DNA of 64,000 nt. Origin: Patescibacteria group bacterium (lineage in GTDB: Bacteria; Patescibacteriota; Minisyncoccia; Phycocordibacterales; UBA918). The notes beneath the pieces are model-generated. The model saw only the letters and a program-made list of their open reading frames with translations. It did no database searches and had not been told where the DNA came from. Position 1 is the stretch's first letter. Each line of letters begins with the position of its first letter. Where the stretch lies: NCBI GenBank assembly GCA_038065355.1, contig JBBTRC010000010.1, positions 157,844-221,843 of the forward strand, written 5' to 3'. This document shows positions 4,513 to 29,020 of the stretch, in pieces. Position numbers and translations under genes: made by a program.

Positions 4513-6684
4513 ATGGCACGAGCATTTCCACTAGAACGACTCCGCAATTTCGGTATTGTCGCGCATGTTGACGCGGGCAAGACTACCACGTCTGAACGCG
4601 TGCTTTTCTACACCGGCGTGAGTCACAAAATCGGCGAAGTGCACGACGGCGCCACCGTGACCGACTGGATGGAGCAGGAACGCGAACGCGGCATCACCAT
4701 CACTGCCGCTGCCATTTCTTGTAACTGGTCAAAGACTAACGTGGCTGACCGAAAAGATACCTCGCAGATGTACTCTTTCAACATCATCGACACGCCCGGC
4801 CACATCGACTTTACCGCCGAAGTGAAGCGCTCAATGCGCGTCTTAGACGGCGCGGTGGTCGTATTTGACTCGGTCGCCGGCGTCGAACCGCAGTCGGAAA
4901 CCAACTGGGGTTATGCCGACGAAGCCGGTGTCCCGAGAATTTGCTTCATCAACAAAATGGATCGCATGGGCGCCGATTTTGAAAAATCGTACAAAAGCAT
5001 CCTTAACCGTCTTTCCAAGAAAGCGGTGCGCCTCCAGATCCCGTGGGGAAGTGAAGGCAACTTTAAAGGTGTCGTCGACCTCATGAAAATGAAAGCCTAC
5101 ACTTTTACCGGTGAGATGGGTATGACGGTCGTTGAACAGGAGATTCCAGCCGAACTTCTTGACGAGGCAAAGAAATATCGCGCCGAACTAGTCGAACGCG
5201 TGGTTGAACACGATGACGCACTCATGGAACGCTTTTTGGCTGGTGAAGAGCCAACTGTCGAAGAGCTCATGATGACGCTCCGCAAAGCAGTGATTGCCAA
5301 CCAAATTTTTCCCGTCCTCACTGGTTCGGCGCTCAAGAATGTCGGCGTACAGCTCGTGCTCGACGCAGTGGTTGATTACCTTCCCGCGCCAACCGACCTG
5401 CTACCGGTCAAAGGCATCAATCCTAAGGACGACTCGGAAGTCGAACGGAAGCCAGCTGACAGCGAACCCTTTGCGGCGCTCGCCTTCAAGCTCCAGACCG
5501 ACCCCTTCGTCGGCCAACTGACCTTCTTCCGTGTGTATTCTGGCACGGTGAAATCCGGAAGCTACATCTACAACTCTACTAATGGTGAGAAAGAGCGCCT
5601 CGGCCGCATCGTCCGCCTCATGGCTGACAAGCGAACCGAAATCGAAGAAGTGTTCGCGGGCGAAATCGCCGCCGGCGTCGGACTGAAAGACGTGAAAACC
5701 TCACACACCCTCTGTGATGAAGCCAAGCCGATTATTTTGGAACAGATCACCTTCCCGGAACCAGTTGTCGCGATGCGGGTTGAACCAAAGACAAAAAATG
5801 ACCAAGAAAAGATGGGTACCGCGCTCAAGAAACTGGCAGACGAAGATCCAACTTTCAAAGTTTCAACCGACGACGAGACCATGGAAACGATTATTGCTGG
5901 TATGGGCGAACTCCACCTTGAAATTCTTATCGACCGCATGAAGCGGGAGTTTGGTGTCGAAGCCAACGTCGGCGCGCCACAAGTGGCCTATCGCGAAACT
6001 ATCCAACGCGAAGCTGAAGCCGAATACAAATACATCAAACAGTCAGGCGGCCGCGGTCAGTATGGTCACGTGAAGATCAAGATCCGCCCGATGCAGCCGC
6101 TCGGTGAAGACGAAACAGTGAAGAAGAACGTCACTCGTGAAGACCACTTTGAATTCATCAACAACATCAAGGGTGGCGCGATTCCTGGTGAGTACATCCC
6201 AGCGGTTATGAAGGGCGCCAAAGAGGCGATGGGACGCGGATTTGTGGCGGGCTACAAGATGGAAGACATTTCGGTCGAACTCTTTGATGGTAGTTACCAC
6301 GATGTCGACTCGTCTGAAATCGCCTTTAAGCTGGCCTCTATTCACGCCTTTAAGGCGGCGGCGGCCAAAGCCGGCGCGGTCTTGCTCGAACCAATCATGA
6401 AGATTGAAGTGCGCACTCCGGAAGAGTTCATGGGTGACATCAACGGCAATATCTCCAGCAAGCGCGGCCACGTCGAGGGTATGGACGATATCGGCGACAA
6501 GAAGGTGATTACCGCCAAGGTGCCATTGTCGGAAATGTTTGGCTACACTAATACGCTCCGCTCGATGACGCAGGGTCGCGCGTCGATGATGATGGAATTC
6601 CACCACTACGATGTGGTACCAAATAACGTCGCAACAGAAATCAAGAAAGCCCGCGGAGTGAAAGATGTGGAAGAAGAAGCGTAA
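4513..6684 (+). CDS. fusA: translation elongation factor G
   Basis: 723 aa with the [10 protein letters not shown]1 motif, DTPGHIDF, and full EF-G domain order. It has a ~10 aa insertion before the DTPGH motif. Confidence 0.95.
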
Positions 6685-6796: not shown

Positions 6797-7669
6797 ATGG
6801 AAGGTGCACCAAAAAATAATAACGAAAGGAAAACTGGCAGATGGAAGAACATGCTGGGTGCAGCTATGGCACTTGGCTCGGCTTCTGCTATGTCGCCCGA
6901 AGCGGAGGCACAACAACCTCCACATTCTTACGAGGAGACTGTAGAGAACAAACAAGAAGTTATTGAACAGAGCCGTTCTCAGGCGATTACAGATTTAAAA
7001 GATATTGCTATGAGTACTGCGTGGCGAACCGAAGATGGTGAAGACAAAAACCAGATTGCAGCAGCCGCAGAACATGATGTAAAATACATTCTCAAAGCGT
7101 ATGTAGCCACTTTTGATACAGAGCGACCGCAGACTTACGATGAAGGTCGTCTAGACAGGACCATTCCGTCGCAGGCAGCACACGAAGCGGCTTTGATCGA
7201 ATTTAGTAATTTATTTGAAGCCGATCCAGACCTTCAAAATAGTCCACATGCTCTGCTGTTTAAGACTATGTTAGAAAACGTGGTTGCACACGGCATAAAC
7301 CCATCGAACCAAAAACTTGAATCCAAGTGGCAAAGACGAGATCGAATAATCGGAGAAGCAATAGAAGAAGCCGACAAACTCTTGGAAGAATCCGATAAAT
7401 CTATTGTAAAAATCCAAGAAAAACGGGAGGAATTAGACAAAGAGTATGAAGAGTTACAGGCCAAGTTCGAAGATCTGCGCCGGCGTGGAATCTTGAAGAA
7501 TCCAGAAGATAGGGTGTCACCTGAAGAAGCGCGTGACGAACGAATACAGTTTCTTAAAGACAAACGAGACAAGGCAGATGGGGGAGGGGGTGATTTGTCC
7601 AAGCAGGAATATCGCGAACTCAATCGTCTTATGGAAGAGCGACGTAATGAGAGAAAGGGTATAAAGTAA
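6797..7669 (+). CDS. hypothetical charged coiled-coil protein inserted between fusA and tuf
   Basis: 290 aa, K/E/R/D-rich with heptad-like segments (EEADKLLEESDKSIVKIQEKREELDKEYEELQAKFEDLRRRG). An Ala-rich signal-like N-terminus (AAMALGSASAMS) is possible. Confidence 0.6.
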   Translation: MEGAPKNNNERKTGRWKNMLGAAMALGSASAMSPEAEAQQPPHSYEETVENKQEVIEQSRSQAITDLKDIAMSTAWRTEDGEDKNQIAAAAEHDVKYILKAYVATFDTERPQTYDEGRLDRTIPSQAAHEAALIEFSNLFEADPDLQNSPHALLFKTMLENVVAHGINPSNQKLESKWQRRDRIIGEAIEEADKLLEESDKSIVKIQEKREELDKEYEELQAKFEDLRRRGILKNPEDRVSPEEARDERIQFLKDKRDKADGGGGDLSKQEYRELNRLMEERRNERKGIK

Positions 7670-9495: not shown

Positions 9496-9536
9496 AGTGA
9501 GCAAACGAGCGCAAGCGACTATTGCGAACTTCCTCA

Positions 9537-9572
9537 GAAAATTGTTCACTCCTAGAACAATTTTTTGAGCAG
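9537..9572 (+). terminator. terminator after rpsJ
   Basis: aaaattgttc actccta gaacaattttttg: a 10 bp stem followed by a U-run. Confidence 0.6.
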
Positions 9573-9616
9573 AACCATTGCAGTCCAGGCTGTTGTTTAT
9601 CATTCCTAGGTTTGTT

Positions 9617-9657
9617 GCCAACACAAAAGCCGCGCCCCTTTGGGGCGCGGCTTTTCG
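9617..9657 (+). terminator. second terminator-like hairpin in the rpsJ-rplC gap
   Basis: aaaagccgcgcccc ttt ggggcgcggcttttcg: a perfect 14 bp stem. Confidence 0.65.
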
Positions 9658-9716
9658 TTATCCCCACAGACGCCTTGTTTTTCAGAAACTATGCCCCGAT
9701 AATACAGGGACAACAG

Positions 9717-9752
9717 GAGGCGACCCTAAAAGGGTCGCCCCTTTCTGTTGTA
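9717..9752 (+). terminator. third terminator-like hairpin
   Basis: ggcgaccct aaa agggtcgcc followed by cctttctgttg. Confidence 0.55.
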
Positions 9753-9835
9753 TTCCTGTAGTTATAGTTGGAAACATAAGCACAGGAGTGACGCGAGAAT
9801 AGTTCTTTTAGTTCTTTTTTAACAAAAAATATCTA

Positions 9836-9967
9836 TGGATAAACTTCCACCAGATAGTTTGACGTTTATGGGCGAAGACAGTTGGATGGTGCAATGTTTA
9901 AGTCTAGCGACCGTTGGTATGCTGGCCTACTTACAGATTGCACCCGCCGTAAGTCAAGTTCTATAAA
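9836..9967 (+). CDS. candidate small ORF, 43 aa, MDKLPPDSLTFMGEDSWMVQCLSLATVGMLAYLQIAPAVSQVL
   Basis: ATG to TAA with a terminator hairpin (aaagccgagc tcc gctcggcttttgtgttg, 9988-10022) 20 nt downstream. The C-terminus is hydrophobic. There is no SD, but this genome rarely uses SD. Confidence 0.25.
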
Positions 9968-10115
9968 ATTATGTAAACGTACAAACACCCCCAAAGCCGA
10001 GCTCCGCTCGGCTTTTGTGTTGTCTTGCTAATTTTTAATAAATCCGTATACTACCGGGAGCTTTTAAAGACCTATGTACCGAGGCGTTTTTAACGCTAGG
10101 GACCAATGGGCACAA

Positions 10116-10170
10116 ATCGCGCGGTTTTGGCGGCGAGCTTGTGCTCGCGCCAAAACCGCGCGATTTGTTG
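10116..10170 (+). promoter_or_regulatory. very stable ~25 bp hairpin 45 nt upstream of rplC; candidate attenuator or leader structure
   Basis: caaatcgcgcggttttggcggcgagc ttgt gctcgcgccaaaaccgcgcgatttg has one bulge and is followed by ttgttgt. Confidence 0.5.
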
Positions 10171-10211
10171 TAAGGGTCAAAAAGCCACATTTTATTATTT
10201 AATCCACACAC

Positions 10212-11908: not shown

Positions 11909-12769
11909 ATGAAATTTTATCGACCAACCTCTGCTGGACGTCGTGATAGTTCAGTCATTGAGTACAAGAAAAAGCTGACGACTACCCAAAGTCAGCCGCA
12001 TAAATCACTCACCAAGGGCAAACGCAGTACCGGCGGTCGCAACAGCCAAGGTCGTACGACCAACTTCTACCGCGGCGCTGGCAACAAGCGTACTTACCGA
12101 GAGATTGATTTTCGTTACAACAAAAAAGATGTACCGGCGAGAGTCGAATCAATCGAGTACGATCCAAACCGTTCCGGCTTTATTGCACTCGTCTGCTATG
12201 CAGACGGTGAACGCCGCTACATTCTCGCGCCGCAACAGCTTGAGAAGGGTACCGAGATTATCGTCTCAGAGACCGCCAAACCTACCGTGGGCAATCGTTT
12301 GCCGCTTCATGCCATTCCAGTCGGTATGTTTGTCTACAACGTAGAGATCAAACCCGGCGCTGGCGCCAAGCTCGCTCGTTCGGCTGGCAACTACGTGGAA
12401 GTAGTGGCTCAAGATGAGAACTACACCACGCTCAAAATGCCATCGACCGAAATCCGCAAGGTAATAAAAACAGCCTGGGCTTCGATTGGTTCTGTTTCAA
12501 ACGAAGAAAATCGTTTGGTGGCAATCGGCAAGGCCGGACGTGCTCGCCACATGGGACTTCGTCCGAAGACTCGTGGTACAGCGCGGAACGCAGTCGACCA
12601 CCCGCACGGAGGTGGTGAAGGCCGTAGTCCTCGCGGTCACCGCCGCAGTCGTACGATGCAAGGTCGTCCGACCGGTAAAGGTCAAAAGACCCGATCACCA
12701 AAGAAATATTCCAATCCCTTCATTGTCGAACGCCGCAAGCCCGGCCGTCTGATGGGCGGATCGCGGTAA
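11909..12769 (+). CDS. rplB: 50S ribosomal protein L2
   Basis: 286 aa with the conserved L2 core and HPHGGGEG motif. Confidence 0.96.
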   Translation: MKFYRPTSAGRRDSSVIEYKKKLTTTQSQPHKSLTKGKRSTGGRNSQGRTTNFYRGAGNKRTYREIDFRYNKKDVPARVESIEYDPNRSGFIALVCYADGERRYILAPQQLEKGTEIIVSETAKPTVGNRLPLHAIPVGMFVYNVEIKPGAGAKLARSAGNYVEVVAQDENYTTLKMPSTEIRKVIKTAWASIGSVSNEENRLVAIGKAGRARHMGLRPKTRGTARNAVDHPHGGGEGRSPRGHRRSRTMQGRPTGKGQKTRSPKKYSNPFIVERRKPGRLMGGSR

Positions 12770-12773
12770 CACA

Positions 12774-12803
12774 AAAACACCCCCTTGCGGGGTGTTTTTG
12801 TGT
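12774..12803 (+). terminator. terminator after rplB
   Basis: aaaacacccc cttgc ggggtgtttttgtg. Confidence 0.75.
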
Positions 12804-12899
12804 GAGCACCTGACTTTCGTCAGGTGTGTACCGCGATCCGAGCCGGAGCGTTGTGAAGTGCGCAATTCCTAGCGCACAAAACAGCGGGAGAGGTTGCGA

Positions 12900-12943
12900 A
12901 CACAGCCAAAATCACGTACTTTCGTGCGTGATTTTGGCTGTGT
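12900..12943 (+). promoter_or_regulatory. 17 bp perfect hairpin upstream of the acidic protein gene
   Basis: acacagccaaaatcacg tactttcgtg cgtgattttggctgtgt. Confidence 0.5.
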
Positions 12944-12980
12944 TACACTACCTATATATCAGCATGTAATCGTTATCATC

Positions 12981-14168
12981 ATGAGTACTATTCGCTTCCA
13001 CGTCTATCTAATCACCTTTAGTTTTTTCACATTTGGTTTTTTCTTTGTTCCGACTTTTTCATTTGCGGCCAATGAATGCTCGTTCACCCGCCAGCTGGAA
13101 GTCGGTATTGACGGAGAGGACGTGCGCTGTCTTCAACGTTACCTAAATGCGACTGGGTTTGTCATCGCGGATAGCGGTCCCGGTTCGCCCAGCAACGAAA
13201 CCTCACTCTTCCGTGACAAGACTAAAGAGGCGGTGATTCGTTGGCAAATAGCCAAAAAAATAACTCCAGCGAGCGGTATCTTTGGACAAAAATCCCAAGC
13301 CGCCTATCTGATCGACCAAGTGGCCCTCTTGCGGCCGCCAGTCACCACTACTCCGGTTGTGGTGCAGGCACCGTCGCCAACTCCGCAGGTGGCCGGTATT
13401 TCAACTTCCCAGCCTTCAAAACTGCAGGCAGAATTGGAACAAGCCATCCTTGATGCGATAGACATATTTGAGGACGCCGAAAACGAGATAGAAGACGCGC
13501 GAGACGAAGGGAGGAGCACTGATGGATTCGAAGATGATCTCAACGATGCGCGCGACGAACTCTTTGCCGCCATCCGATCGTACTTTGACGAAGACTGGGA
13601 GGACGGGCTCGGCCAAGCGGATGACGCCTTTGACGCCGCCGAAGATGCCTTTTCCGATGCGGGTGGAGAAACGGAAGAAGACGACGCTGAAGAGCTTCTT
13701 GATGAGGTGAATGACGCACTCAAGGATGCCGAGGAAGAGATAGAGGACGCGAAAGATGATGATAAAGATACCGACGACGCTGAAGACTACCTCGACGACG
13801 CCGAAAACACCCTGAATGATGCAGAAGACGCCTTTGACGATGAAGACTACGACGAAGCGATTGATCTCGCAGAAGAAGCGGAAGACTTAATCGACGACGC
13901 GCTTGATGCAATTGGTGATAGTGACGACGAATCCGATGCGGAGGATGCGCTCGATGATGCGCAAAATGCGTACGACGACGCCAAGGATGAGATTGAAGAG
14001 GCGGAAGATGATGGCGACGACGTCGAGGACGCACTTGACCTCTTAGACGAAGCGAAAGACCTACTTGACGACGCGGAAGACGCCTTTGACGATGAAGACT
14101 ACGACGAAGTGCTTGATCTGGTCGAGGAAGCGGAAGACCTCATCGACGAAGCGCTCGACGAGATTTAG
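12981..14168 (+). CDS. secreted hyper-acidic repeat protein with an N-terminal peptidoglycan-binding (PG_binding_1-like) domain
   Basis: The start is taken at the internal Met (MSTIRFHVYLITFSFFTFGFFFVPTFSFA signal), because the upstream part of the ORF overlaps the hairpin. Residues ~35-110 (GEDVRCLQRYL...GIFGQKSQAAYL) resemble the PG-binding repeat. The C-terminal ~250 aa are roughly 60% D/E, with two ~84 aa tandem repeats (DAEDAFDDEDYDE[AV][IL]DL[AV]EEAEDLID[DE]ALD) also visible as ~100 bp DNA direct repeats at ~13820-13920 and ~14070-14165. Confidence 0.65.
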   Translation: MSTIRFHVYLITFSFFTFGFFFVPTFSFAANECSFTRQLEVGIDGEDVRCLQRYLNATGFVIADSGPGSPSNETSLFRDKTKEAVIRWQIAKKITPASGIFGQKSQAAYLIDQVALLRPPVTTTPVVVQAPSPTPQVAGISTSQPSKLQAELEQAILDAIDIFEDAENEIEDARDEGRSTDGFEDDLNDARDELFAAIRSYFDEDWEDGLGQADDAFDAAEDAFSDAGGETEEDDAEELLDEVNDALKDAEEEIEDAKDDDKDTDDAEDYLDDAENTLNDAEDAFDDEDYDEAIDLAEEAEDLIDDALDAIGDSDDESDAEDALDDAQNAYDDAKDEIEEAEDDGDDVEDALDLLDEAKDLLDDAEDAFDDEDYDEVLDLVEEAEDLIDEALDEI

Positions 14169-14175
14169 GAAATAA

Positions 14176-14212
14176 AAAAGCGGCGCGGCCTAGAGGCCGC
14201 GCCGCTTTTTGC
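14176..14212. terminator. bidirectional terminator
   Basis: aaaaagcggcgcggcc taga ggccgcgccgctttttgcg. Confidence 0.8.
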
Positions 14213-14240: not shown

Positions 14241-14555
14241 TCACACTCCTGGCTTTCGCTCACGCTCCTTAAATACCCAGTCACGAAGTTGCTTGCTGGC
14301 TTTGAGCGCGGCAAAAACAGTGCGGGGATTGCTGTTTGTGTGTACGGCTACTCTCTGACTACTCTGGCCGCTCACTAGTAGCTCAAAGCCAGCTTTCGTA
14401 TGCACTGCCGTCACAAATCTTGTCCCGCTACCAGTGCGGTTTGGCCGGATTTCGCCCGGCGCGATCATTTTGATACCTGGAATTTTCTTAAGTTCTGCGA
14501 CCACAATAGCGGCTGTTTCTGTGAGAGAAGAATGTTCGCGACCGCGGGGCTTTGC
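14241..14555 (-). CDS. hypothetical small protein (~104 aa)
   Basis: Minus-strand ORF MAKPRGREHSS...; no family recognised. It sits between the acidic protein and the pentapeptide-repeat gene. Confidence 0.4.
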   Translation of the reverse strand, partial: AKPRGREHSSLTETAAIVVAELKKIPGIKMIAPGEIRPNRTGSGTRFVTAVHTKAGFELLVSGQSSQRVAVHTNSNPRTVFAALKASKQLRDWVFKERERKPGV

Positions 14556-14582
14556 CATATTTGAGAGCATAGCACAAAAGAA

Positions 14583-14612
14583 AGGCCGGACGCGCGTTGC
14601 GCGTCCGGCCTG
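14583..14612 (-). terminator. terminator after the pentapeptide-repeat gene
   Basis: ggccggacgcgc gttg cgcgtccggcc (11 bp stem) followed on the minus strand by tttcttttg. Confidence 0.7.
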
Positions 14613-14622
14613 GGACTAAAGA

Positions 14623-15198
14623 TCACGTCTGCATGCCCGGTCCAAGCGGACTCGATTTGTCGATCATAGCTTGGACATCTTCACGCGAAAGACCGAGCAT
14701 TCTTCTGGCTGTCGAAGTTGAGACGAAAATACCATTCTTGTGAAGCAGAAGTTGCTGAGCCAGAACTGGGTCAGAAGTAGTGACACTATTTCTGAACCAG
14801 GCGTAAACAAAAATCCATGACGCATTACCCATTACGTCACACAAATCCACGTGTCCTTTAAAGAGGGTACTTTCAAAGTCAGCAACCCCTCTGAAGGTAA
14901 CTTCGACGAAGGTCACTAGACCGGAGAATTCCGTGTTATGGAATGAGGCGTCACTTTTAAAAACAGCACCATCGAAGTGGGTAAATTCGTGGAATTGACT
15001 GCAAATAAAATTGGCACTCTTTTCAAAAATGGCTTCTCTAAAGGAGATATCTTCTGAAAATTCGTGATTGGTTACTCTAATGTCAGTGGTAAAGATAACC
15101 TTATTGAAGTTAGTTCGACCTTGCTTGAGTGCGAGAAAAAACTCCTCCTCAGTCATCTTTTCACACACAAGAGCTTCACCGCTCTCTTCGGTACCCAT
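14623..15198 (-). CDS. pentapeptide-repeat protein
   Basis: 191 aa. The central region is made of consecutive A(D/N/S)(L/F)xx pentapeptides (ANFICSQFHEFTHFDGAVFKSDASFHNTEFSGLVTFVEVTFRGVADFESTLFKGHVDL). Confidence 0.75.
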   Translation of the reverse strand: MGTEESGEALVCEKMTEEEFFLALKQGRTNFNKVIFTTDIRVTNHEFSEDISFREAIFEKSANFICSQFHEFTHFDGAVFKSDASFHNTEFSGLVTFVEVTFRGVADFESTLFKGHVDLCDVMGNASWIFVYAWFRNSVTTSDPVLAQQLLLHKNGIFVSTSTARRMLGLSREDVQAMIDKSSPLGPGMQT

Positions 15199-15293: not shown

Positions 15294-15477
15294 CCCACCT
15301 TCCAAATAGTTGACTTTATTTGCCATTTTAGGTACTCTTTCCCCGTTCCAACCTTTGTCGCACGTTGTTCACCAGCTCGTCTCGTGAACGACAAAATCAA
15401 CAAAATAATGGAATGGGAGTCCCTCTTAAGGCCGGCCGTTACCTGTCTTTACCAGGGATTCCCACTCGACCGCCACT

Positions 15478-15516: not shown

Positions 15517-15663
15517 TACGCGGTATTACCAACTAAATGAAAAGGGTAGTGCTGAGTGAAATTCGCGAAGCTTAGGAATTTTTCGAGGGAGACGTAGTCC
15601 TTCTACGATGACCGAGAAAAATTCCGTAGCGACAAAGAATTTCGCCAGCAGTACCATTTGAAT

Positions 15664-15990
15664 ATGTCACGATCACTCTATAAAGGACCCTACGTAGACG
15701 AGAAACTTCTCAAAAAAATCGCCGGAAAAAAACCCGGAGAGGGTGGCGTCGTCAAGACCTGGTCGCGCCGCTCGGTCATTTCACCAGAAATGGTCGGCTT
15801 CACCTTCGGCGTGCACAATGGCAAGAGCCATGTTGACGTGCTCGTTGCCGAAGAAATGGTCGGCCACAAGTTTGGTGAATTTTCACCAACCAAGAAATTC
15901 CATCGCCACGGAGGTAAGATGCAAAAAGAACTTGAAGTGAAGAAGAAGGAAGCTGAAATTGCCGCCGCGAAAGCTGCGAAGGCTGTGTAA
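15664..15990 (+). CDS. rpsS: 30S ribosomal protein S19
   Basis: [12 protein letters not shown]...[26 protein letters not shown]: the S19 signature, followed by a C-terminal K/A-rich tail. The ATG at 15658 is an alternative start. Confidence 0.93.
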
Positions 15991-18724: not shown

Positions 18725-19264
18725 ATGGAAACAGTACAGACTCGCATGCAAAAAGCATTTGACGCACTCAAAGGCACTTTTGCGTATACAAACGTCAACC
18801 AAGTACCAAAGGTTGAGAAAATAATCGTATCGGTCGGCGTTGGCCGCGTCGAAGACAAAGCCAAGTTGGCACTGATCCAAGATCGTCTAGCGCGCATCAC
18901 CGGCCAAAAGCCGGCACCGCGTCCAGCCAAGCAATCAATTGCTTCGTTCAAGCTTCGTCAAGGCGACATCGTGGGCTACCAGGTGACCCTCCGCGGCGCT
19001 CGTATGCAGCATTTCTTGGATAAGCTCATTCACCTCGCCTTGCCGCAAACTCGCGACTTCCGCGGGCTCAAACTTTCGTCAATCGACGAGATGGGCAATT
19101 ACACCATGGGCATCAAGGAACATACCATTTTCCCAGAAACGGCTGACGAAGAAATTAAAGACGTGTTTGGCATGTCGATCACTATCGTGACGACCGCCAA
19201 AAACAAGACTGAATCAGAAGCCATTCTCCGCCACATTGGCTTGCCGCTACAAAAAGCTGAATAG
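18725..19264 (+). CDS. rplE: 50S ribosomal protein L5
   Basis: 179 aa L5 family. Confidence 0.95.
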   Translation: METVQTRMQKAFDALKGTFAYTNVNQVPKVEKIIVSVGVGRVEDKAKLALIQDRLARITGQKPAPRPAKQSIASFKLRQGDIVGYQVTLRGARMQHFLDKLIHLALPQTRDFRGLKLSSIDEMGNYTMGIKEHTIFPETADEEIKDVFGMSITIVTTAKNKTESEAILRHIGLPLQKAE

Positions 19265-19546
19265 CTTTTTAGAAAGCACACTGTTGTGCTTTCGGGTAGA
19301 GGCAAGAGGCGGAGTCATGTTTTTTGCTCATTTCCATAGAGCAAAAAACAGACGAGCTCGGGTGAGAAAGTGTTGGATACTTTCGCAAGACCTTTTGAGA
19401 TATTTTGAAGAATGAAAAATACCCAAAAGGTATACCGCTTCTGTAAGAAGGAAGTTCTTAATGAGCGTAGCGAATTTAGAAACTTGACCCTGCCGCTGCA
19501 GAAACCAACTGAATAGTTGGTTCTCAGACTTCAGAACAAAAGTCAC

Positions 19547-19581
19547 CACAAAACCAGCGACATGTGTCGCTGGTTTTGTGT
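19547..19581. terminator. 16 bp perfect hairpin (one of several) in the rplE-downstream gap
   Basis: cacaaaaccagcgaca tg tgtcgctggttttgtg. Further hairpins lie at 19270-19300 and 19318-19352. This region separates the converging + ribosomal unit and the - block. Confidence 0.6.
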
Positions 19582-19637
19582 AAAAGAAAACGCGCGCAGC
19601 TGTGGCTACGCGCGAGATATCATAAACTCAAATGGTG

Positions 19638-20366
19638 TTAGAACTTGAGCTTCTCTAGGTCTTGGAGCAGGTTTTCGAAACTGACGACGACCGGCTGTCC
19701 AAGTGCATAGGCAATGAACTTTTGGTCAACGCCGAGTGCTTCGACTTCTGGACAGCCAGCCAACCTTCCGGCTAAAGCGGGAGGTTTGTCGCTTCCCGGG
19801 TCGGTATACCAGCTAATTAACTGCTTGTCCGCCTCCCGGCCAATTTGTCGGTGAAACACCAGCAAATTGTTCGTCACAGCTGTACGTTCGTCTGGTTCGA
19901 GTACTGAGCCGGCTCGACCAATAAGAAACAACCCTAAGTACTGTCGGCGCAGGTGGTCTTCGATAGTGCGTCCGTCAAATACTTTTTCGCCGAGGATTCG
20001 CACTCCTTCGGAGTCAGCAGTTTCTCGCAAGACGTTGTTTAAGTAGTCATCAAGATTAAAAACATTCGCTACCGTTTTCTGTGCTTGAGACGGCAGCGTC
20101 GCATAGGCCGCTTTAATTTCTTTGATCAACTTAATCAGGTTTGGCAAGTCGACAAATTCACCATGCGCTAATTTCCAGGCGGCGACTGTAAAACTGTTTT
20201 CTGAAAACCCGAATCGATCTTGCAGATGTTTAAGGTCAGTGCCGAGTTCAGTAAGTGTTTTCTTGAGATCAAGCTTATTCTTCATAAGACGCTCGACCAT
20301 AGACTGTAACGCTAAAGCGCCAACAAACATTGCACCGGCCCGTAACAGAGGATAGATCGCGATCAT
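19638..20366 (-). CDS. hypothetical protein with an N-terminal hydrophobic segment (last gene of the minus-strand block)
   Basis: 242 aa; no family recognised. Confidence 0.55.
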   Translation of the reverse strand: MIAIYPLLRAGAMFVGALALQSMVERLMKNKLDLKKTLTELGTDLKHLQDRFGFSENSFTVAAWKLAHGEFVDLPNLIKLIKEIKAAYATLPSQAQKTVANVFNLDDYLNNVLRETADSEGVRILGEKVFDGRTIEDHLRRQYLGLFLIGRAGSVLEPDERTAVTNNLLVFHRQIGREADKQLISWYTDPGSDKPPALAGRLAGCPEVEALGVDQKFIAYALGQPVVVSFENLLQDLEKLKF

Positions 20367-20502
20367 GCACGCTCCTTTGTAAAGATCACTTCCGTACCAG
20401 TAAACAAGTTTTTAGAATAAAAGCAAGTTTTGCACAATATAGAAAAACGGCTCGCCTGGTAGGCGAGCCGTGAGTTAAGAACAAAGTTGTTAAAACGAAA
20501 TA

Positions 20503-22158
20503 TCATTCCCAGGTGTTACCCAGTCTTGACTGTAGCTCAGTCGGCCAGGCTTTTGATTGCAAGGGATCTACCCAGACAACCACTCCAGTACGAGCGTCGG
20601 TGATAGCAATTTCTGGTGTAGCGCCAGTGATAAATTCCATCGCCCCGACCTCTGACTCGGTCTGTTTGACGGCTACGACGGTTGTCATCCAGAAAAGTCG
20701 CTCCGTCACTTCACCCTTTCGATTCGAAAATTTACGAATGAAGGGACGGTGTTCGACTGGTCGGAAGCGAGTCCAGTCGTAATTTTTCTTCGACTCTTCT
20801 ACTTTTGGTCCGACTGTACTTACGCCAATTAACTTCGTGCCCCGAGTCGAATGTTGGTATTGGTATATCAGCCTCGAACCGTCAGCCGGAATGAATAAAC
20901 TGGTCGCGAGACCTTGTTTCTCCGGATCAAATGGTTCAAGCGCAAAGTAAGCATAGAGAGCCCCTATTTTTTCACCAGGCATTTTGAAGTGCAAAGTGAA
21001 TGGTTGAGGGTTGACGTCGTCAGGCAAATTAGGAATGCGCACATCTCCACTATGCACGCCAGGGAGTGGTCCAGTGAAGCCTTCTTGGAAGCGAAAGCTT
21101 TCCGCAACGAAACGGGTTACCTGTGGTGCGACCAGATTTTGGCCGCGCAGAAAGGTGTGTTTCGAAACGTTGCGGGGAGAGACGTATTCCCCACACCCAA
21201 TTAATGGACGCAACAGTTCTGTCCAGTGGGGCCGCTTACCTTCTTGACGCACAATTTGGACACCACCAAACTCCGGTCGAGGAAAAAATAAACCGCTCCA
21301 TTTAATGAGTGAGACGACCTGTATCCATTCGCCGGTGTCATCCTGCATGTACAGAATGTTGCTGGGCTCATGGTTTAAAAATCGCCAAGGGCCAAACGAA
21401 CGCAGAGTGCACGAGTGAAGATTGTTGGAGAACAACATCTCTTCGCCAGTGCGAAACCGCACTCGGATTGGATTAGTTCGTGAGAAGTCAGGAGACGGCG
21501 ATGTAGCCGGTATACTCATGATTTCTCCGACGGATCCAGTCATACGGCCAACGAACCGTGCCGGCTGTACCGCTATTGTCCAGACGTCTCCGTGTTTGGT
21601 ATGTACCAAGTCAGGAACCGTCGGTCGTAATTGACTTTCGTCCATTCGTTCACGAATGAGTGAGTGTACGGCGTTAAGTGGCAGTACTCGCTCGTTCGCA
21701 GTTGTTGGAAGTAATCGCAGATCAACAATCTCAAGTGTTTGATACTGTTGAAAAGATGCAATGTACCGGTTGACTGGCTCTAGTCTTGCTAGTGCCACCG
21801 AAGTCAAAAGCAGACAAACGAATGTGGCAGTACCACGAACACGAATTGTCTGTTTCCGGGTCGTAAACCAAGTGATGCCGGTCAGCACCATCACGGTTAG
21901 GATGGCGCCGAAATAAATCCGAACGCCATGGATGAATGGTTGATATGCCCATCGTATATGCAGCAAGACAAGCGGCACTACGATGAGCATAGTCTTCGTC
22001 AGCCGTGGATGCTTCTTGAAAACCGATTTAATACTTACCAGTGTGTGGTGAATGAACCATCCCACCGGCGAGCGTTCCTTGCTTGCCTTTTTGGCGACAA
22101 CAGGAGCAATCGGTTTTTCAGTTTTACTCATGTCGATTTCCTCCAGTAAATCGCTCAA
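20503..22158 (-). CDS. hypothetical membrane protein: 3 N-terminal TM helices plus a ~400 aa extracytoplasmic domain
   Basis: 551 aa. It overlaps the upstream gene by 35 nt, indicating translational coupling. Confidence 0.6.
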   Translation of the reverse strand: MSDLLEEIDMSKTEKPIAPVVAKKASKERSPVGWFIHHTLVSIKSVFKKHPRLTKTMLIVVPLVLLHIRWAYQPFIHGVRIYFGAILTVMVLTGITWFTTRKQTIRVRGTATFVCLLLTSVALARLEPVNRYIASFQQYQTLEIVDLRLLPTTANERVLPLNAVHSLIRERMDESQLRPTVPDLVHTKHGDVWTIAVQPARFVGRMTGSVGEIMSIPATSPSPDFSRTNPIRVRFRTGEEMLFSNNLHSCTLRSFGPWRFLNHEPSNILYMQDDTGEWIQVVSLIKWSGLFFPRPEFGGVQIVRQEGKRPHWTELLRPLIGCGEYVSPRNVSKHTFLRGQNLVAPQVTRFVAESFRFQEGFTGPLPGVHSGDVRIPNLPDDVNPQPFTLHFKMPGEKIGALYAYFALEPFDPEKQGLATSLFIPADGSRLIYQYQHSTRGTKLIGVSTVGPKVEESKKNYDWTRFRPVEHRPFIRKFSNRKGEVTERLFWMTTVVAVKQTESEVGAMEFITGATPEIAITDARTGVVVWVDPLQSKAWPTELQSRLGNTWE

Positions 22159-22813
22159 GCACTGCTCGAGGATCTTTTTGCGGCTGTTCTGGTGCTGACT
22201 CCTCCGAAGTCGCCGACGGAGTAAGTGTCTCTAGCGGCTTGTTGACGACAGGTTCAGGGGGTGAGCTGGTAAGCGCTTCGCGAGCGTCACGCAACTTTTC
22301 CCCAACGGCGTCACCGATTTTTTCCGTAACGTCTTTGGCGACGGCACCGGCCGCATTAGCAGCTCCTCTCGCAACTTGACCAGCCATTTCGCCAGCTAGC
22401 TGCTTGAGGGTAATTTCCTTACTCTCGACTTTGTCGAGTCGAGTCGCAACCTTGTCGAGAAGGAAGTCACCGAGACGGATAAATGGCGTGACTAGATAGA
22501 ATCCAGCGACCATAAAACCCGCTTCAAGTGCCCACATGATTATCTCGACAGTGAAATCAACTTCTTCTGCCCGCCAAACTACGTACGCGCTCTGAACAAA
22601 CGAGATAATCGACGCAAACCATAGCTTGCGTCGAGCTGGTTGTCCCACAATAAAACCTCGTCGATCACTTAGTGGTAACGGGTCTTTGTGAGTCATTCGA
22701 TGCAGCCAGCGACGCGTAGGGACGCCAAATTTGGTGTCCGCCATTGCCCAAATAATTCCTAACAAAAGGAACATAATGAGCAAGCCAAGGGCCTTTGAGA
22801 AACTTATCTCCAT
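22124..22813 (-). CDS. hypothetical membrane protein: 3 TM helices plus a C-terminal amphipathic Ala/Gly/Lys-rich region
   Basis: 229 aa. It starts 3 nt after the upstream gene's stop. Confidence 0.6.
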   Translation of the reverse strand: MEISFSKALGLLIMFLLLGIIWAMADTKFGVPTRRWLHRMTHKDPLPLSDRRGFIVGQPARRKLWFASIISFVQSAYVVWRAEEVDFTVEIIMWALEAGFMVAGFYLVTPFIRLGDFLLDKVATRLDKVESKEITLKQLAGEMAGQVARGAANAAGAVAKDVTEKIGDAVGEKLRDAREALTSSPPEPVVNKPLETLTPSATSEESAPEQPQKDPRAVLERFTGGNRHE

Positions 22814-22815
22814 GT

Positions 22816-24084
22816 TTACTTCCTTTCGGTGTAGGTTTTATCTGAGTTGTAACCGACGATTTGCTTACGAGCGACTGCTCGCATTGGCTTACTCCAGGTT
22901 TGGTAGCGGTCAAGAAAAAGATTCTTATCAACCGCGTAGAGACGCATGACGTCAACTGGCCACGCTTGCACGTGACAAATTAATCGCCACACTAAGTTTT
23001 CTTCATGTCGGGTAGAAGTGTTCACTGGATGTAGCAAGCATGCTTGCACTTCCGATGAAACTGTCGGCAAAACTTGATCTTCGGTAATCTTGACAGCAAA
23101 TTCTTCGAGTTCAGCGTACACGTCCACGAATGGATGTTTACACCGACTCAAAGCACCTTTAGCATGTCCGTCGGTCATTGTGTCGACCGGTATTTCAGGG
23201 TCGACCGTTGACAAGATGAAGAGACCAAGTGTGGCTAGACGTTCTTGCAGAACGTGCGGGTGTGTTTGGTACCAACGCACGTCAATGTCGGCGACACCGC
23301 TTTCACGAATACGTGACACAACGTTTGGGTCGCGCACATGTGTTGTATAGGGTACCAATTCTGCACCGGCCTTATCTACCAACTTTTCGTTTTCAACAAC
23401 GATGAGTGCCCGCTGTCGTTGGTGCCTAAAGACGTAAACCCCTCCGAGCGCGGCGGTATAGAAGTCGTCGAACTCAGAAAATGTAAAGTCGTCGATCACC
23501 AGCTGGCGATCGTATAATTTTCCATTTTCGTTGAGGTCTTTTATTATCTTTTTTCGTAGTCCCGTGTCCATCCAAGCGTCTGTATCTTCACGCATGAATT
23601 CACCGACGAGTTGCTTTTGTTGAATTGCTTTATCAGCTAGTGTTCCAGCATGCGACACTATCTTAATAGTCCGAAGACTTTCGACGTGTGTCAGTTTCCG
23701 ATACCACGTGACACGTTGATCAATTTCAAGTGCAATGCCGGTTTCTGCTGTCAGGTTGGCAATTGCTTCCCGATTTTTCTCAAAGTATCGCTGCATCATC
23801 AATCGATCAAACGAGTGGGCCGGCATGTAAATTGGCTGGTTCTCTTGGTTGATAGTGACGATTATTCCGCGCGGATTTGCTAAACCGTGCGAAAGATAAT
23901 AGCGATTTTGAAACTCATCGGCAATTTCCGGCGACCAACCAATCCCATCGATGTGGAAATGGTCGAGCGTTGTCGGTGTTAAACCGAGCTGTTCCATGCA
24001 TACACGATATCGTTTGATTGTTTCTGGTCGGTCGATGAGAATGAGTCCACCGCCAACCAGCGCCGTTCTTGTAAGCTCCCTCAT
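22816..24084 (-). CDS. hypothetical soluble protein, 422 aa
   Basis: No recognisable motif. It is tightly linked to the downstream membrane-protein genes. Confidence 0.6.
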   Translation of the reverse strand: MRELTRTALVGGGLILIDRPETIKRYRVCMEQLGLTPTTLDHFHIDGIGWSPEIADEFQNRYYLSHGLANPRGIIVTINQENQPIYMPAHSFDRLMMQRYFEKNREAIANLTAETGIALEIDQRVTWYRKLTHVESLRTIKIVSHAGTLADKAIQQKQLVGEFMREDTDAWMDTGLRKKIIKDLNENGKLYDRQLVIDDFTFSEFDDFYTAALGGVYVFRHQRQRALIVVENEKLVDKAGAELVPYTTHVRDPNVVSRIRESGVADIDVRWYQTHPHVLQERLATLGLFILSTVDPEIPVDTMTDGHAKGALSRCKHPFVDVYAELEEFAVKITEDQVLPTVSSEVQACLLHPVNTSTRHEENLVWRLICHVQAWPVDVMRLYAVDKNLFLDRYQTWSKPMRAVARKQIVGYNSDKTYTERK

Positions 24085-24152
24085 TGTTCATCTCCGAGTT
24101 AAGGGGTTGTGGGTGGTAAGTCGGGTGGCCATTAGCCACCCGACTCAGATTT

Positions 24153-26108
24153 TCAGAGCTCAGTCTTTTCTTGCTTCAGTTCCGTATGCGCTTTTAACTG
24201 CACACGAATTCTTTTTTTCTCCGCCTCGACCTCTCGCCGAAACTGCTTTTCAGCAATGGTGGCAAAAGCGTCAAGGTAACGAGACGTCTCTTGCACCCAG
24301 ACGTCCTGCATCTTGAGGGTGCCCATGTTCTGGTGCATAAGGTCTTTAAGCATCGCACGTTTTTGCTCGTAGTCACGGCGGAAAAACACTTCTGGCTTTT
24401 CCATCCATTCGTCAGGCGGATCGAAATCCACCATTCGGGCTGACACAGCTGATTGAATGTTGCGAACTTCTCGGGACGAGAAGCCGTCAAATTCTTTCTG
24501 TACCGATGCCGCCAATACCGCGAAAAACTTAAACTCAGTCACGGCATGCTGTTTCAGAACTCGGTCAAAAATATCTCGCATTGTCGAATGCTTGGGAGCA
24601 TCGTAATGTTCGAGACTTTGTGACAGACTGACCAGCTCAGCTTGCAGCGACATGTATTCGTAGTCTGTTGGATCAGTCATGTTGGCAGTAAATTCTGGCA
24701 CAGCGTCCCGAAAATGCTTCCACCACAAGCGATCTTGGTCGAGGAAGTCTTCCCAGCGCCGCGCTCCGTTAATGGGAAAGCGAGCTTGGTGCCTTGAAAG
24801 TACGGCTGGATCAATCTGTTCCGGTAAGTTGGTGAAGGTCTCAATGACTGATGACCCCCGCTGTATATACACCGCACCAGCCCCTTCGGTGCCGGTTAAG
24901 AACTGGCTGATGACTTCACGAACGCCGGCCGATACCCCCTGCTGCATAGTTCGGTCTTGGAGTACTTGCTCGGCATCGTCAATCGCACCATACACGATCC
25001 GTTTTGGATCATTGAATTTTCTGAACCAGGCGTGCATCCGTTCGGCTGATCCACCTTGGTAGGTCGAGATGACCGTACCGCCAAGCGGATGATAGTCAAA
25101 AGGTATGCCAATCATGGTACAGATGTCATGGAACAAGGTAGCGGTCGCCGCAATTTGCAACGACTTACCAGTTCCGGGCACGCCGTGGCCGAGACGAACG
25201 TTTTGAAACGACCCAGTTAGTTCACGGAACGGATTCCGCTGCATAATCGGATCGTAACAACACACTCGAAACACCATCCGACGGGCTTCGTGTTTCGCTT
25301 CGCGGTTTCCGACGATGGTGTCGAATGAAGTGCGAGTAAACTCCACCTTCGCGCTTTCGTCCCGCGTTTCCGCGGTGAAGCCGTGAATAGTGAACTCACT
25401 GCCTTCTAGTTGGTATGAACGCTCGGTAAACGGTTCCGCAAACATGATCGTGCTCTGCACGCTCTTGATGTCTTCGAGAACTTTCTCAAAGTACACCCGC
25501 GTGAGTTTCACAAATGCTTCCGGAGTTTTTTCCGTTAATCGTTCGAGTGATTCAACGTAAAAGTAGATAAGCGAGCGGAGTGAACCAGCTCGGTTACTGT
25601 AGTCCAAACGAGGCATATCGAAATCAGGTACCGACACGCTGTTAACGGCGTCGGTGTGATACGTCGATAGTTCCCATAGGATGTAGTATGCTGCCACAAA
25701 ACGAGTGACATGCGCCATCGTCTGGTTTTTCTTGTAGAATTCTACGCGCTCAGCTTCGCTGCTGAACCCGCCACTTCTTGTCTGTTGATTGTTTAAGATC
25801 TCGAGACCGGAAGCGTTTTTGTAGAGTTCCGCGATGTGAGTCCCAAGTTCAACACCCTGCTTCACGATGTGGAGCGTGTGATTGACCTTGTCCGCTAGCA
25901 ATTTGGACTCAATCGGCCCGAATGTTCGGGCAACATCGAGTGCCTTTTTGGTAGCAGTAATGTCTCTGGTACTGCCGGCCGCGTAACCGCGGTCGGCAGT
26001 ACGATGCTGCACCACTTGATCAACATTTTCAAGTAGATCAAGGGCGGTGCGTCCGTATCGCTGCAGGTCACTACGGGTGACCTGCAGCGGCGCTTCGTTA
26101 GATTGCAT
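24153..26108 (-). CDS. AAA+ ATPase (classical AAA clade) with a ~300 aa N-terminal domain of unknown function
   Basis: Walker A GVPGTGKS, Walker-B-like IVYGAIDDAEQ, and a second region of homology (TNLPEQIDPAVLSRHQARF) that aligns to the FtsH/Vps4-type SRH. The start is taken as the ATG at 26108 (MQSNEAPLQ), which is preceded by GGAGGT and lies 5 nt after the upstream stop. The longer ORF-track start would overlap the upstream gene by 173 nt. Confidence 0.7.
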   Translation of the reverse strand: MQSNEAPLQVTRSDLQRYGRTALDLLENVDQVVQHRTADRGYAAGSTRDITATKKALDVARTFGPIESKLLADKVNHTLHIVKQGVELGTHIAELYKNASGLEILNNQQTRSGGFSSEAERVEFYKKNQTMAHVTRFVAAYYILWELSTYHTDAVNSVSVPDFDMPRLDYSNRAGSLRSLIYFYVESLERLTEKTPEAFVKLTRVYFEKVLEDIKSVQSTIMFAEPFTERSYQLEGSEFTIHGFTAETRDESAKVEFTRTSFDTIVGNREAKHEARRMVFRVCCYDPIMQRNPFRELTGSFQNVRLGHGVPGTGKSLQIAATATLFHDICTMIGIPFDYHPLGGTVISTYQGGSAERMHAWFRKFNDPKRIVYGAIDDAEQVLQDRTMQQGVSAGVREVISQFLTGTEGAGAVYIQRGSSVIETFTNLPEQIDPAVLSRHQARFPINGARRWEDFLDQDRLWWKHFRDAVPEFTANMTDPTDYEYMSLQAELVSLSQSLEHYDAPKHSTMRDIFDRVLKQHAVTEFKFFAVLAASVQKEFDGFSSREVRNIQSAVSARMVDFDPPDEWMEKPEVFFRRDYEQKRAMLKDLMHQNMGTLKMQDVWVQETSRYLDAFATIAEKQFRREVEAEKKRIRVQLKAHTELKQEKTEL

Positions 26109-27243: not shown

Positions 27244-27261
27244 GGTCGATCTCCTTTCGAA

Positions 27262-27300
27262 GTTGTTGCAAGCTCAAAAATGGGGGTCATCGCAATGCAA
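27262..27300 (-). terminator. terminator after the coiled-coil gene (minus strand)
   Basis: The minus strand reads gggggtcat cgcaatgca atgacccccattttt. Confidence 0.65.
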
Positions 27301-27322
27301 TGACCCCCAGGGTGGCCTCGAA

Positions 27323-28693: not shown

Positions 28694-29020
28694 GTCATTG
28701 TCCTTTCTCTAGGTTGATTGTTTTAGAATGATATTTCGTTGTCAACGAACAGCCGAAATACCTACTAAGATATGACGGTTCGCTACCCACATGTATATAC
28801 CATTTTTAGTGTATTGTCAAGTTTTTGTAGCCTTTGGTATAGCTATAGATTGCTATTTTTGGGCTTTCTGGTATTGTAGCGGGCACGACGAACTTGGAGA
28901 TTCTAACTAGAAAACCCAGTCGTTGAAGGCGAGTTTTGGCGGCAGCCAATACGAGCCGGATTTATAAGGAAACACGTCACCAATTCTAGGTGATACGGTT
29001 TCATCACCTAACCAACATAC

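Follow-up and report, generated by a model that had tools for sequence, protein, structure and literature searches.

What kind of protein is encoded between the ribosomal protein genes rplB and rpsS of a Patescibacteria group bacterium, and how long has its gene been there? Both questions are raised by a 64,000-nucleotide stretch of contig JBBTRC010000010.1 (called the window here, meaning the whole stretch of DNA that was analysed). In this position it carries an uninterrupted open reading frame (ORF) of 395 codons on the + strand, running from an ATG at 12981 to a stop codon at 14166-14168. The product, which we refer to as the acidic protein, is identical to a protein on contig CAYHNJ010000004.1 of assembly GCA_964357995.1 and on the ENA contigs named 'Hain_H41'; the source of the locus is a Patescibacteria assembly from Hainich groundwater, well H41. 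The acidic protein belongs to a real and widespread family that combines two known domains in a phylum-specific pairing with extreme charge. Its layout is almost certainly that of a signal peptide, a peptidoglycan-binding domain of the PG_binding_1 type, a linker and three helical bundles, with the following parts (aa, amino acids; D+E, Asp plus Glu).

12981-14168, + strand: coding sequence of the acidic peptidoglycan-binding protein, 395 aa.
12981-13067, + strand: Sec/SPI-type signal peptide, aa 1-29, with a rule-based predicted cleavage between SFA and AN.
13071-13331, + strand: PG_binding_1-type domain, aa 31-117, with invariant Cys33 and Cys50 (Pfam, AlphaFold2, Foldseek).
13332-13418, + strand: flexible linker rich in Pro, Thr and Val, aa 118-146, with a predicted local distance difference test (pLDDT) score below 50; it is variable in length and sequence across the aligned family.
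13419-13670, + strand: repeat 1, aa 147-230, helices 147-175, 181-202 and 206-226; 36.5% D+E, net charge -26.
13671-13922, + strand: repeat 2, aa 231-314, helices 232-259, 265-286 and 290-309; 52.4% D+E, net charge -41.
13923-14165, + strand: repeat 3, aa 315-395, helices 316-343, 349-370 and 374-394; 54.3% D+E, net charge -42; the best DUF4398 match.

The repeat region (aa 146-395) is composed of 47.6% Asp and Glu (29% Asp, 18% Glu), 16% Ala and 10% Leu and has a net charge of -109, and the mature form of about 366 aa has a net charge of about -107 and a calculated pI of at most 4.05. A first-pass annotation, made from the DNA letters, had described two hyper-acidic tandem repeats of roughly 60% Asp and Glu. 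The acidity and the tandem arrangement stand, but the proportion is lower than claimed and alignment of the repeat units gives three repeats of ~84 aa. Repeats 2 and 3 are 62.5% identical (z 17 against composition-preserving shuffles), and repeat 1 is a diverged copy (35% identity to repeat 2, z 8.7, and 31% to repeat 3, z 7.3). The DNA direct repeat, previously given as ~100 bp, extends over 240 nt with 71% identity and a spacing of 252 nt, equal to 84 codons (13674-13913 and 13926-14165).

The acidic part is predicted to be folded, not disordered by low complexity. AlphaFold2, run with an alignment of 48 sequences, gives a mean pLDDT of 89 and three-helix bundles at residues 147-226, 232-309 and 316-394, mostly above 90; residues 124-126 and 128-142 of the linker fall below 50. 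Repeat 3 modelled alone from its single sequence is again a three-helix bundle (pLDDT 93, predicted template modelling score, pTM, 0.81). The repeats score above the Pfam cut-off for DUF4398 (PF14346; 41.9 bits against 27.9, in two stretches, the best at aa 330-389), a family of which PA2901 of Pseudomonas aeruginosa (PDB 4fm3) is a solved example. The repeats are predicted as up-down-up three-helix bundles, and 4fm3 is among the Foldseek matches, but the structural match is weak (template modelling score 0.47 on the target, E 3, Foldseek). A typical DUF4398 protein is a proteobacterial lipoprotein made of this one domain, often encoded beside OmpA-like genes. The acidic protein differs from DUF4398 in that it triplicates the domain, raises it to ~50% Asp and Glu and joins it to a PG_binding_1 anchor that follows a Sec signal peptide. 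In Foldseek searches of the PDB with the whole model and with repeat 3, the bundles matched generic or designed helical bundles at E above 0.01, with no functional lead; the weak matches of the repeats include PA2901/DUF4398, EbhA and SmbP. A sequence-profile search of the PDB returned mainly designed bundles.

This acidity is specific to the gene and not a property of the genome at large, since the 68 ORFs of the window have a median of 11.8% D+E and a median pI of 8.8; the same medians rule out a 'salt-in' type of acidic proteome. The acidic protein is the most acidic of these ORFs, with 30.7% D+E when called from an upstream TTG start. The second most acidic lies at 6797-7669 (+ strand, 290 aa, 21% D+E, pI 5.1) between fusA (encoding EF-G, 4513-6684) and tuf, and has no Pfam match.

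Relatives are numerous. Among 5.8 billion proteins searched, 339 were homologues at E of at most 1e-3, the best 120 of which are all below 1e-58; nearly all of these 120 carry PF01471 and most also PF14346. Named homologues are annotated as 'peptidoglycan-binding protein' from Kaiserbacteria, Nomurabacteria, Paceibacteria or Patescibacteria group. When 1.84 billion cluster representatives (50% identity) were searched by profile, 849 clusters matched at E of at most 1e-30, and relatives are encoded in 211 species-representative genomes. In a 48-member alignment the invariant positions include Cys33 and Cys50, the peptidoglycan-binding core (LQ..LN, G.G, E, T, A, WQ, G.F..S) and, in the repeats, Ala at a spacing of seven residues (A351, A358, A365). 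Over aa 147-395 (249 columns), 42 columns are at least 80% Asp or Glu, 18 at least 80% Ala and 35 at least 80% hydrophobic, with a heptad-spaced core. The best 120 homologues are all anionic, with net charges from -29 to -131, and according to a repeat model they hold 1 to 4 repeat copies, three in 88 proteins and two in 28. As every one of them is anionic, the Asp/Glu columns are conserved and the proteome of the window is basic, the acidity is read from these comparisons as selected and not as compositional drift.

These data also bear on whether the acidic region might be a low-complexity or wrong-frame artefact, a doubt voiced in the first-pass annotation, or else a recent mobile insertion confined to this genome. 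The GA-rich DNA does produce long antisense ORFs (104-139 aa), and part of the gap between rplB and rpsS is cargo that differs from genome to genome (a pentapeptide-repeat protein here; toxin-antitoxin, nuclease and GNAT genes in relatives). The coding frame, however, has no stop in 250 codons where the other five frames have 3-32, and hundreds of homologues use this same frame. Full-length homologues with a conserved core, two Pfam domains and high AlphaFold2 confidence refute the artefact, as does a GC content at the third codon position of 0.54, like that of the ribosomal genes (0.53-0.59). A recent insertion is contradicted by the sharing of the rplB-rpsS position among 11 loci of one clade, described below. 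We give the artefact or recent-insertion explanation practically no chance.

The N-terminus, MSTIRFHVYLITFSFFTFGFFFVPTFSFA followed by AN, has by rule the three regions of a Sec signal peptide (Arg5, a hydrophobic stretch at residues 8-26, and small residues at -3 and -1), and AlphaFold2 models a signal-peptide helix at residues 3-21. The secretion signal noticed in the first pass is upheld by the basic residue, a hydrophobic stretch of 18-20 residues and the SFA-AN site. The traits recur in the family: among 115 members examined, 111 have a basic n-region, 109 a hydrophobic run of at least 12 residues and all 115 a small-x-small motif near the first Cys. The protein is thus probably exported via Sec.

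The domain that follows scores above the curated gathering threshold for PG_binding_1 (PF01471; 28.2 bits against 23, aa 45-104, E 2.1e-6), which bears out its earlier description as PG_binding_1-like. Its helices at 46-57, 79-91 and 103-117 are modelled with pLDDT 90-98 over the domain, and Foldseek aligns it to the peptidoglycan-binding domain of SltB2 (7qvd) with a root-mean-square deviation of 2.4 A over 60 columns, 30% identity and a probability of 0.96. Weak profile matches are to 1lbu, 7rum, 4xxt and 5nm7. The anchor, a three-helix N-terminal domain, resembles known PG_binding_1 modules, such as those of SltB2, the Streptomyces Zn D-Ala-D-Ala carboxypeptidase (1lbu) and phage endolysins. 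Unlike these muralytic enzymes, the acidic protein has no catalytic domain, and its cargo is a non-enzymatic polyanion; unlike the usual PG_binding_1 domain, the anchor has two invariant Cys residues and a G-x-GSPG-x-ET insertion in place of DG-x-FG.

Lipoprotein and sortase anchoring were both ruled out. Cys33 is preceded by Ala-Asn-Glu and not by a lipobox ([LVI][ASTVI][GAS]C), which only one of the 115 homologues approaches, and the acidic protein contains no LPxT[GA] motif, ending in ...DLIDEALDEI. With neither an LPXTG motif nor a lipobox, retention in the wall must be non-covalent, via the PG_binding_1 domain. The word 'anchored' in the first-pass annotation accordingly holds for non-covalent binding and fails for covalent attachment. 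The domain probably binds peptidoglycan in vivo, an expectation supported indirectly by the presence of the same variant on many other secreted multi-domain proteins.

Matches of the family profile include proteins that score 58-143 bits on PG_binding_1, and the Cys-bearing variant occurs in one to four copies on other exported proteins (P0243, P0247, P0270, P0303, P0314 and P0340). Four tandem copies are found in P0243 and P0270; P0340 is a protein of 3819 aa with fn3, Big_13 and FG-GAP domains, P0314 is an InlB-repeat protein, and P0247 is a fusion of PG_binding_1, DUF4398 and a GDSL hydrolase. Modular use of the variant on many secreted proteins suggests that it serves the phylum as a general wall anchor, with the acidic bundles as cargo displayed on it.

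What would such a protein do? The simplest reading of an anatomy made of a wall anchor, a flexible tether and carboxylate-surfaced bundles is a protein polyanion of the wall, which we put forward as a possible and still tentative mechanism. In this proposal a protein of ~40 kDa would be exported via Sec, the PG_binding_1-type domain would hold non-covalently onto the peptidoglycan of a single-membrane Paceibacteria cell, and the flexible Pro/Thr linker would display the three tandem DUF4398-type bundles. Bundle cores would be built from Ala, Leu, Ile, Phe and Tyr and nearly all exposed positions from Asp and Glu, for a total net charge of about -110. The result would be a fixed negative charge that sets the surface charge and serves as a non-specific, low-affinity reservoir for Mg2+, Ca2+ and other cations. 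With -26 to -42 net charges per 84 residues, folding of the bundles probably needs counter-ions. Chelation of cations, surface charge and host contact, the roles suggested in the first-pass annotation, are all compatible with these data, which give no evidence that the organism is an episymbiont.

Patescibacteria have been inferred to possess one membrane plus murein, and in one genus a rhamnose polysaccharide has been proposed 'instead of teichoic acids' (PMC11809585). The wall and lipoteichoic acids of Firmicutes may be regarded as a functional analogue of the acidic protein, not a homologue, as they too place a polyanion in the peptidoglycan of a single-membrane cell. By this analogy, the acidic protein would be expected to bind cations, give the surface its charge and control wall enzymes. 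The difference lies in the chemistry: the acidic protein is a gene-encoded carboxylate protein that would be held non-covalently, whereas teichoic acids are phosphodiester polymers linked to N-acetylmuramic acid or lipid. Another point of comparison is the Treponema pallidum protein Arp (TP0433), which combines Glu-rich tandem repeats with a peptidoglycan-binding SPOR domain, is secreted or membrane-located and varies in repeat number among strains. The Arp repeats are ~20 aa long and probably disordered, and its peptidoglycan-binding domain is C-terminal and of another fold; we know of no sequence relation between Arp and the acidic protein.

Several results weigh against the polyanion proposal. 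No specific metal site was found, and the acidic region contains no His. An EF-hand site was considered and rejected (below). The anchor scores modestly on PG_binding_1 and has G-x-GSPG-x-ET where DG-x-FG is canonical. The whole-model pTM is only 0.43, so the arrangement from bundle to bundle is not fixed by the model. The relative in which the anchor and DUF4398 precede a GDSL hydrolase fits a spacer as well as it fits a charge role. Finally, a search of the literature on DUF4398, and on Patescibacteria together with acidic or peptidoglycan-binding proteins, returned nothing relevant.

The GDSL fusion, in which the bundle appears as a linker, leads to a structural alternative. The bundles may form a semi-rigid stalk reaching from the peptidoglycan to an S-layer, to pili or to a host surface, or a bridge built with Ca2+, the charge being secondary and serving solubility, stiffness or repulsion. 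Tandem three-helix bundles are building blocks of wall-associated rods, and repeat number differs among species, from 2 to 4, as it would for a ruler. The weak matches include EbhA of S. aureus (2dgj) and EzrA in Foldseek and Ebh (6gv8, E 0.011) in the sequence-profile search. Ebh/EbhA resembles the acidic protein in its wall-associated tandem helical bundles, but the matches to 6gv8 and 2dgj are not significant, and Ebh is a giant of ~1 MDa with FIVAR-GA type modules that is membrane-anchored and not hyper-acidic. The structural matches as a whole are likewise not significant (E above 1), and the low pTM lends no support to a fixed rod. In the family of the acidic protein nothing lies C-terminal of the bundles, so there is no head domain to display, and a pure spacer has no need of ~50% Asp and Glu, which is kept in 120 of 120 homologues. 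A spacer or scaffold role is in our view fairly unlikely.

The same charge could instead act on other cationic molecules. The polyanion might trap antimicrobial peptides, lysozyme-like hydrolases or polyamines as a decoy, or might inhibit or position the cell's own peptidoglycan hydrolases, and its very high density of negative charge would sit right on the substrate of muralytic enzymes. Weak similarities to helical inhibitor or adaptor folds lie below threshold (PMEI, 22.7 bits against 29; HEPN, 17.3 against 22), but such scores are typical of any helix rich in Ala, Asp and Glu. Searches of NCBIfam, PADLOC and PHROGs gave only weak matches (LmuB and Avs2 in PADLOC; a tail protein and an endolysin in PHROGs), which we read as driven by the helices or by the peptidoglycan-binding domain. 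Neither a hydrolase nor a defence gene is a conserved neighbour, the next-largest neighbour families reaching at most 13 of 85 loci. We consider a decoy or regulator improbable.

Specific binding of Ca2+ is less probable again. Here the turn between helices 2 and 3 of each repeat (A-F-D-D-E-D-Y-D-E-A) would be an EF-hand-like site, making the protein a Ca2+ sensor or buffer, or one that inhibits encrustation by carbonate in limestone groundwater. Among the acidic stretches of the repeat this turn is the best conserved, DEDYDEAIDLAE (aa 287) and DEDYDEVLDLVE (aa 371) fit the relaxed motif D-x-D-x-D-x-x-[ILV]-D-x-x-E, and the Hainich groundwater source would suit the idea. However, there is no match to PS00018, the PROSITE pattern failing at three positions including Gly6 (manual comparison), and AlphaFold2 puts most of the motif in helix 3, leaving a loop of only 3 residues. 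Even the relaxed motif, present in the acidic protein at aa 287 and 371 only, is missing in 67 of the 120 homologues and is within reach of chance, as 65 of 2000 shuffles attain two matches. We rejected an EF-hand site on these grounds and regard a dedicated Ca2+ protein as very unlikely.

The polyanion proposal concerns the protein; the second question concerns its place in the genome. The gap between rplB and rpsS contains more than the acidic gene.

11909-12769, + strand: rplB (ribosomal protein L2), the upstream flank (ORF; Pfam Ribosomal_L2_N/C on the identical public contig).
12769-12803, no strand assigned: intrinsic terminator hairpin after rplB with perfect 15-nt arms, an A-run on its 5' side and a T-run on its 3' side, and thus able to work in both directions.
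12804-12959, + strand: structured RNA-like element (fold, covariance model).
12941-12949, + strand: candidate extended -10 promoter element TGTTACACT of the acidic gene.
14175-14210, no strand assigned: bidirectional intrinsic terminator of the acidic gene and the convergent DUF2103-like gene, with perfect 17-nt arms (AAAAA...TTTTT).
14241-14570, - strand: DUF2103-like small basic protein, 105-109 aa (Pfam DUF2103, 23.6 bits against a cut-off of 22.4).
14623-15198, - strand: pentapeptide-repeat protein (Pfam Pentapeptide_3, 45.3 bits).
15415-15463, + strand: conserved hairpin 5' of rpsS (blastn, alignment of 9 loci).
15658-15990, + strand: rpsS (ribosomal protein S19), the downstream flank.

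Both ribosomal flanks are where the first-pass annotation had placed them, and the bounding terminators with a 17-bp hairpin that it had listed are present at 12769-12803 and 14175-14210. The insertion into the S10/spc operon that it proposed holds as far as location between rplB and rpsS goes, but the arrangement is not recent. Homologues with 38-46% identity occupy the same gap in two Kaiserbacteria genomes and one 'Nomurabacteria' genome. The context recurs in 8 of 80 species-representative loci (L005, L006, L007, L033, L063, L067, L073 and L074), which together with L001, L002 and L004 make 11 related loci besides the window, with 34-47% protein identity; rplB itself is 77-84% identical between the window and the related loci. 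All 11 loci and the window have the DUF2103-like gene on the minus strand inside the gap, and the position of the terminator after rplB is kept in 10 related loci with differing stem sequences. In a neighbour-joining tree of 84 members, every protein from the rplB-rpsS context falls into one clade, within which L061, from another context, is nested. Since these loci share the DUF2103-like gene and group in the protein tree, we read the rplB-rpsS position, from synteny and phylogeny, as an old, vertically inherited feature of the clade.

Since then the junction has been a site where cargo gathers. The smallest gap (L063) holds the acidic gene and the DUF2103-like gene alone, and the longest, of ~11-12 kb, have added toxin-antitoxin pairs and GNAT, SNase, PIN/PhoH and other genes. 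The pentapeptide-repeat gene of the window, which has its own terminator-like hairpin (14583-14611), is cargo of this kind and particular to this genome: tblastn of the related loci gave zero matches. The DUF2103-like protein has 478 homologues, with 66-75% identity among the matches listed; its conservation far exceeds that of the acidic protein, and it is basic and without Cys despite the 'metal-binding' name of its family. In ~70 other species the acidic gene lies in unrelated contexts, and outside the ribosomal clade we found no conserved neighbour, the largest neighbour family occurring in 13 of 85 loci. No functional partner emerged from gene neighbourhood.

Downstream of the cargo, the hairpin 5' of rpsS consists of a covarying 10-bp stem and a near-invariant loop of ~27-29 nt with the consensus UUAAGGCCGGCCGUUACCUGUCUUUAC. 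It is kept in all nine clade loci aligned and has no Rfam match, and is a candidate leader, promoter or regulatory site for the detached rpsS-rplV-rpsC-rplP... half of the operon.

The ribosomal super-operon of the window shows two further irregularities. A non-coding gap of 716 nt inside the S10 operon separates rpsJ from rplC (9496-10211). Its last ~160 nt (10040-10200), which include an internal palindrome, have 68-80% identity with the corresponding stretch of L006, L007, L063 and L005 and match L033 and L001 over a shorter length; the end of this gap is a candidate leader of the rplC operon. A second split lies at 19264-29137, where an island of ~9.9 kb with seven minus-strand genes (DUF6638, an AAA ATPase and five without Pfam match) separates rplE from rpsH. 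The relative L002 is also broken after rplE.

Given the terminators before and after it and the -10-like elements of relatives, the acidic gene most likely forms its own transcription unit, starting from its own promoter and ending at the bidirectional terminator. In many relatives -10-like hexamers, some of them TGn-extended, are found 6-57 nt 5' of the ATG; the counterpart in the window is TGTTACACT, which a generic promoter scan of the window did not detect. No Shine-Dalgarno sequence is evident before the ATG. In L049, L064, L072, L082, L014 and L032, TATACT or TATAAT starts 6-14 nt before the ATG, a distance that suggests leaderless mRNAs of the acidic gene in several Paceibacteria.

Between the rplB terminator and the acidic gene lies the structured element. 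The 210 nt from rplB to the ATG have a minimum free energy of -110 kcal/mol (z -10 against shuffles). The element proper (12804-12959) is a three-way-junction structure. It comprises a hairpin, hp2 (12807-12826), a helix P2 with a UUCCUA loop, the GGG(G)U of the junction and P3, a long helix formed by a hairpin with 21-nt arms (12899-12944) and a conserved base GUCGCGAGUACUUA...UUAGUAACUCGUGAC; no other copies of this hairpin as a dispersed repeat were found in the window. The regions downstream of rplB in six clade loci share one series of features: a terminator, a re-paired hairpin of varying sequence, the single strand CGUAUCUUUUUCCGAGCC, the UUCCUA-loop helix, the GGGGU junction and the long third helix. 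RNAalifold shows compensatory changes at 24 of 40 pairs. In the alignment made with the covariance model, two-sided changes are seen at 37 of 40 pairs and 92.4% of the cells are paired, where shuffles reach 67.9% and slid partners 35-49%; this alignment was fitted to the model, which itself favours pairing. In 14 of 16 sequences P3 keeps a G-U pair at its base, which points to the + strand for the element and disfavours an RNA from the minus strand.

The covariance model scores 73.8 bits (E 2e-19) on the element of the window and finds 17 copies at E below 0.01 in 1.49 Mb. A weak match (10080-10182, E 0.039) falls within the rpsJ-rplC gap. The other copies are listed here.

19293-19400 of the window, + strand: variant copy after rplE, at the left edge of the rplE-rpsH island.
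L001 5686-5826; L002 1322-1462; L033 5904-6039; L073 2816-3100; L074 2714-2945: element copies.
L032 86-213; L038 6371-6496; L060 9089-9208; L068 11932-12045; L077 9030-9148: element copies.
L034 3525-3637; L084 2291-2403; L152 147-663; L175 3396-3533: element copies on the minus strand.

Copies are in tandem in L073, L074, L152 and L001, and a GAGCGAAGCGAA loop (GCGAAGC mini-hairpin) recurs in the element. Rfam 15 has no family that matches at the gathering threshold, and three copies tested gave no match to the element at E of at most 10. The sub-threshold matches fall only on terminator hairpins or on the opposite strand, and at the level of Rfam known ribozymes, riboswitches and leaders are excluded as the identity of the element.

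Within the clade the element trails rplB or rplE. Outside it, seven loci have the element 32-78 nt 3' of a tRNA gene on the same strand (tRNAs for Arg, Glu, Ser, Ser, Met, Gly and Lys). We read it as a structured RNA without a promoter of its own, carried by the highly expressed genes that precede it. It also keeps company with the acidic gene: the two are at most 1 kb apart in 6 of the 8 non-clade genomes with a match (10 kb searched on each side), and the element follows about 5 of ~20 tRNAs near the acidic gene compared with 1 of ~51 distal tRNAs. The window (22 nt), L032 (57 nt) and L001 have it immediately before the acidic gene. It is nevertheless not in general a simple 5' leader of that gene, as in several loci a terminator and a convergent gene come after the element, or the element lies 3' of the acidic gene. 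On two metagenome contigs the element is present and the acidic gene absent. The pattern used for metagenomes, GGGGTCGCGA N35-60 GTGACG, was too loose, with L152 and L175 the only true copies among the 120 stretches returned.

Two observations concern other RNA genes. Near the acidic gene of three genomes, ARAGORN calls a tRNA-Ser with the unusual anticodon ACT beside an ordinary tRNA-Ser(GCT), in L038 (6232-6319), L010 (11183-11272) and L037 (6725-6812); these may be miscalls or duplicated, diverged tRNAs. The window also encodes an ordinary tmRNA (61432-61827, - strand, 100 bits in Rfam, tag peptide ANKAVPSPYARAFGFAPAFA).

A bolder proposal would join the protein and the RNA. The Paceibacteria polyanion would replace polymers of the teichoic-acid type and fold only when loaded with divalent cations, which would make it a wall component that responds to cations. 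The upstream RNA would be a new class, functionally coupled to the acidic gene either in cis, as a sensor or leader, or as a small RNA expressed together with it, and would mark the splits of the super-operon. Taken as a whole, we hold this to be a long shot.

A large part of bacterial diversity belongs to the Patescibacteria, and knowledge of their envelope hardly goes beyond 'one membrane plus murein'. Against this background the design of an anchor, a linker and a charged array is simple and easy to express and test. If the acidic protein is indeed a polyanion of the wall, it would explain cation homeostasis and surface charge in organisms of minimal biosynthesis, and would offer an abundant surface marker for imaging or capturing uncultured cells. 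The order of rplB and rpsS in the S10 operon is among the most conserved in bacteria, and here it is stably split across a whole clade. The split locus, with a hairpin of its own for the detached half-operon and an unclassified RNA at the break, provides material for the study of operon evolution and for the discovery of new RNAs in the phylum.

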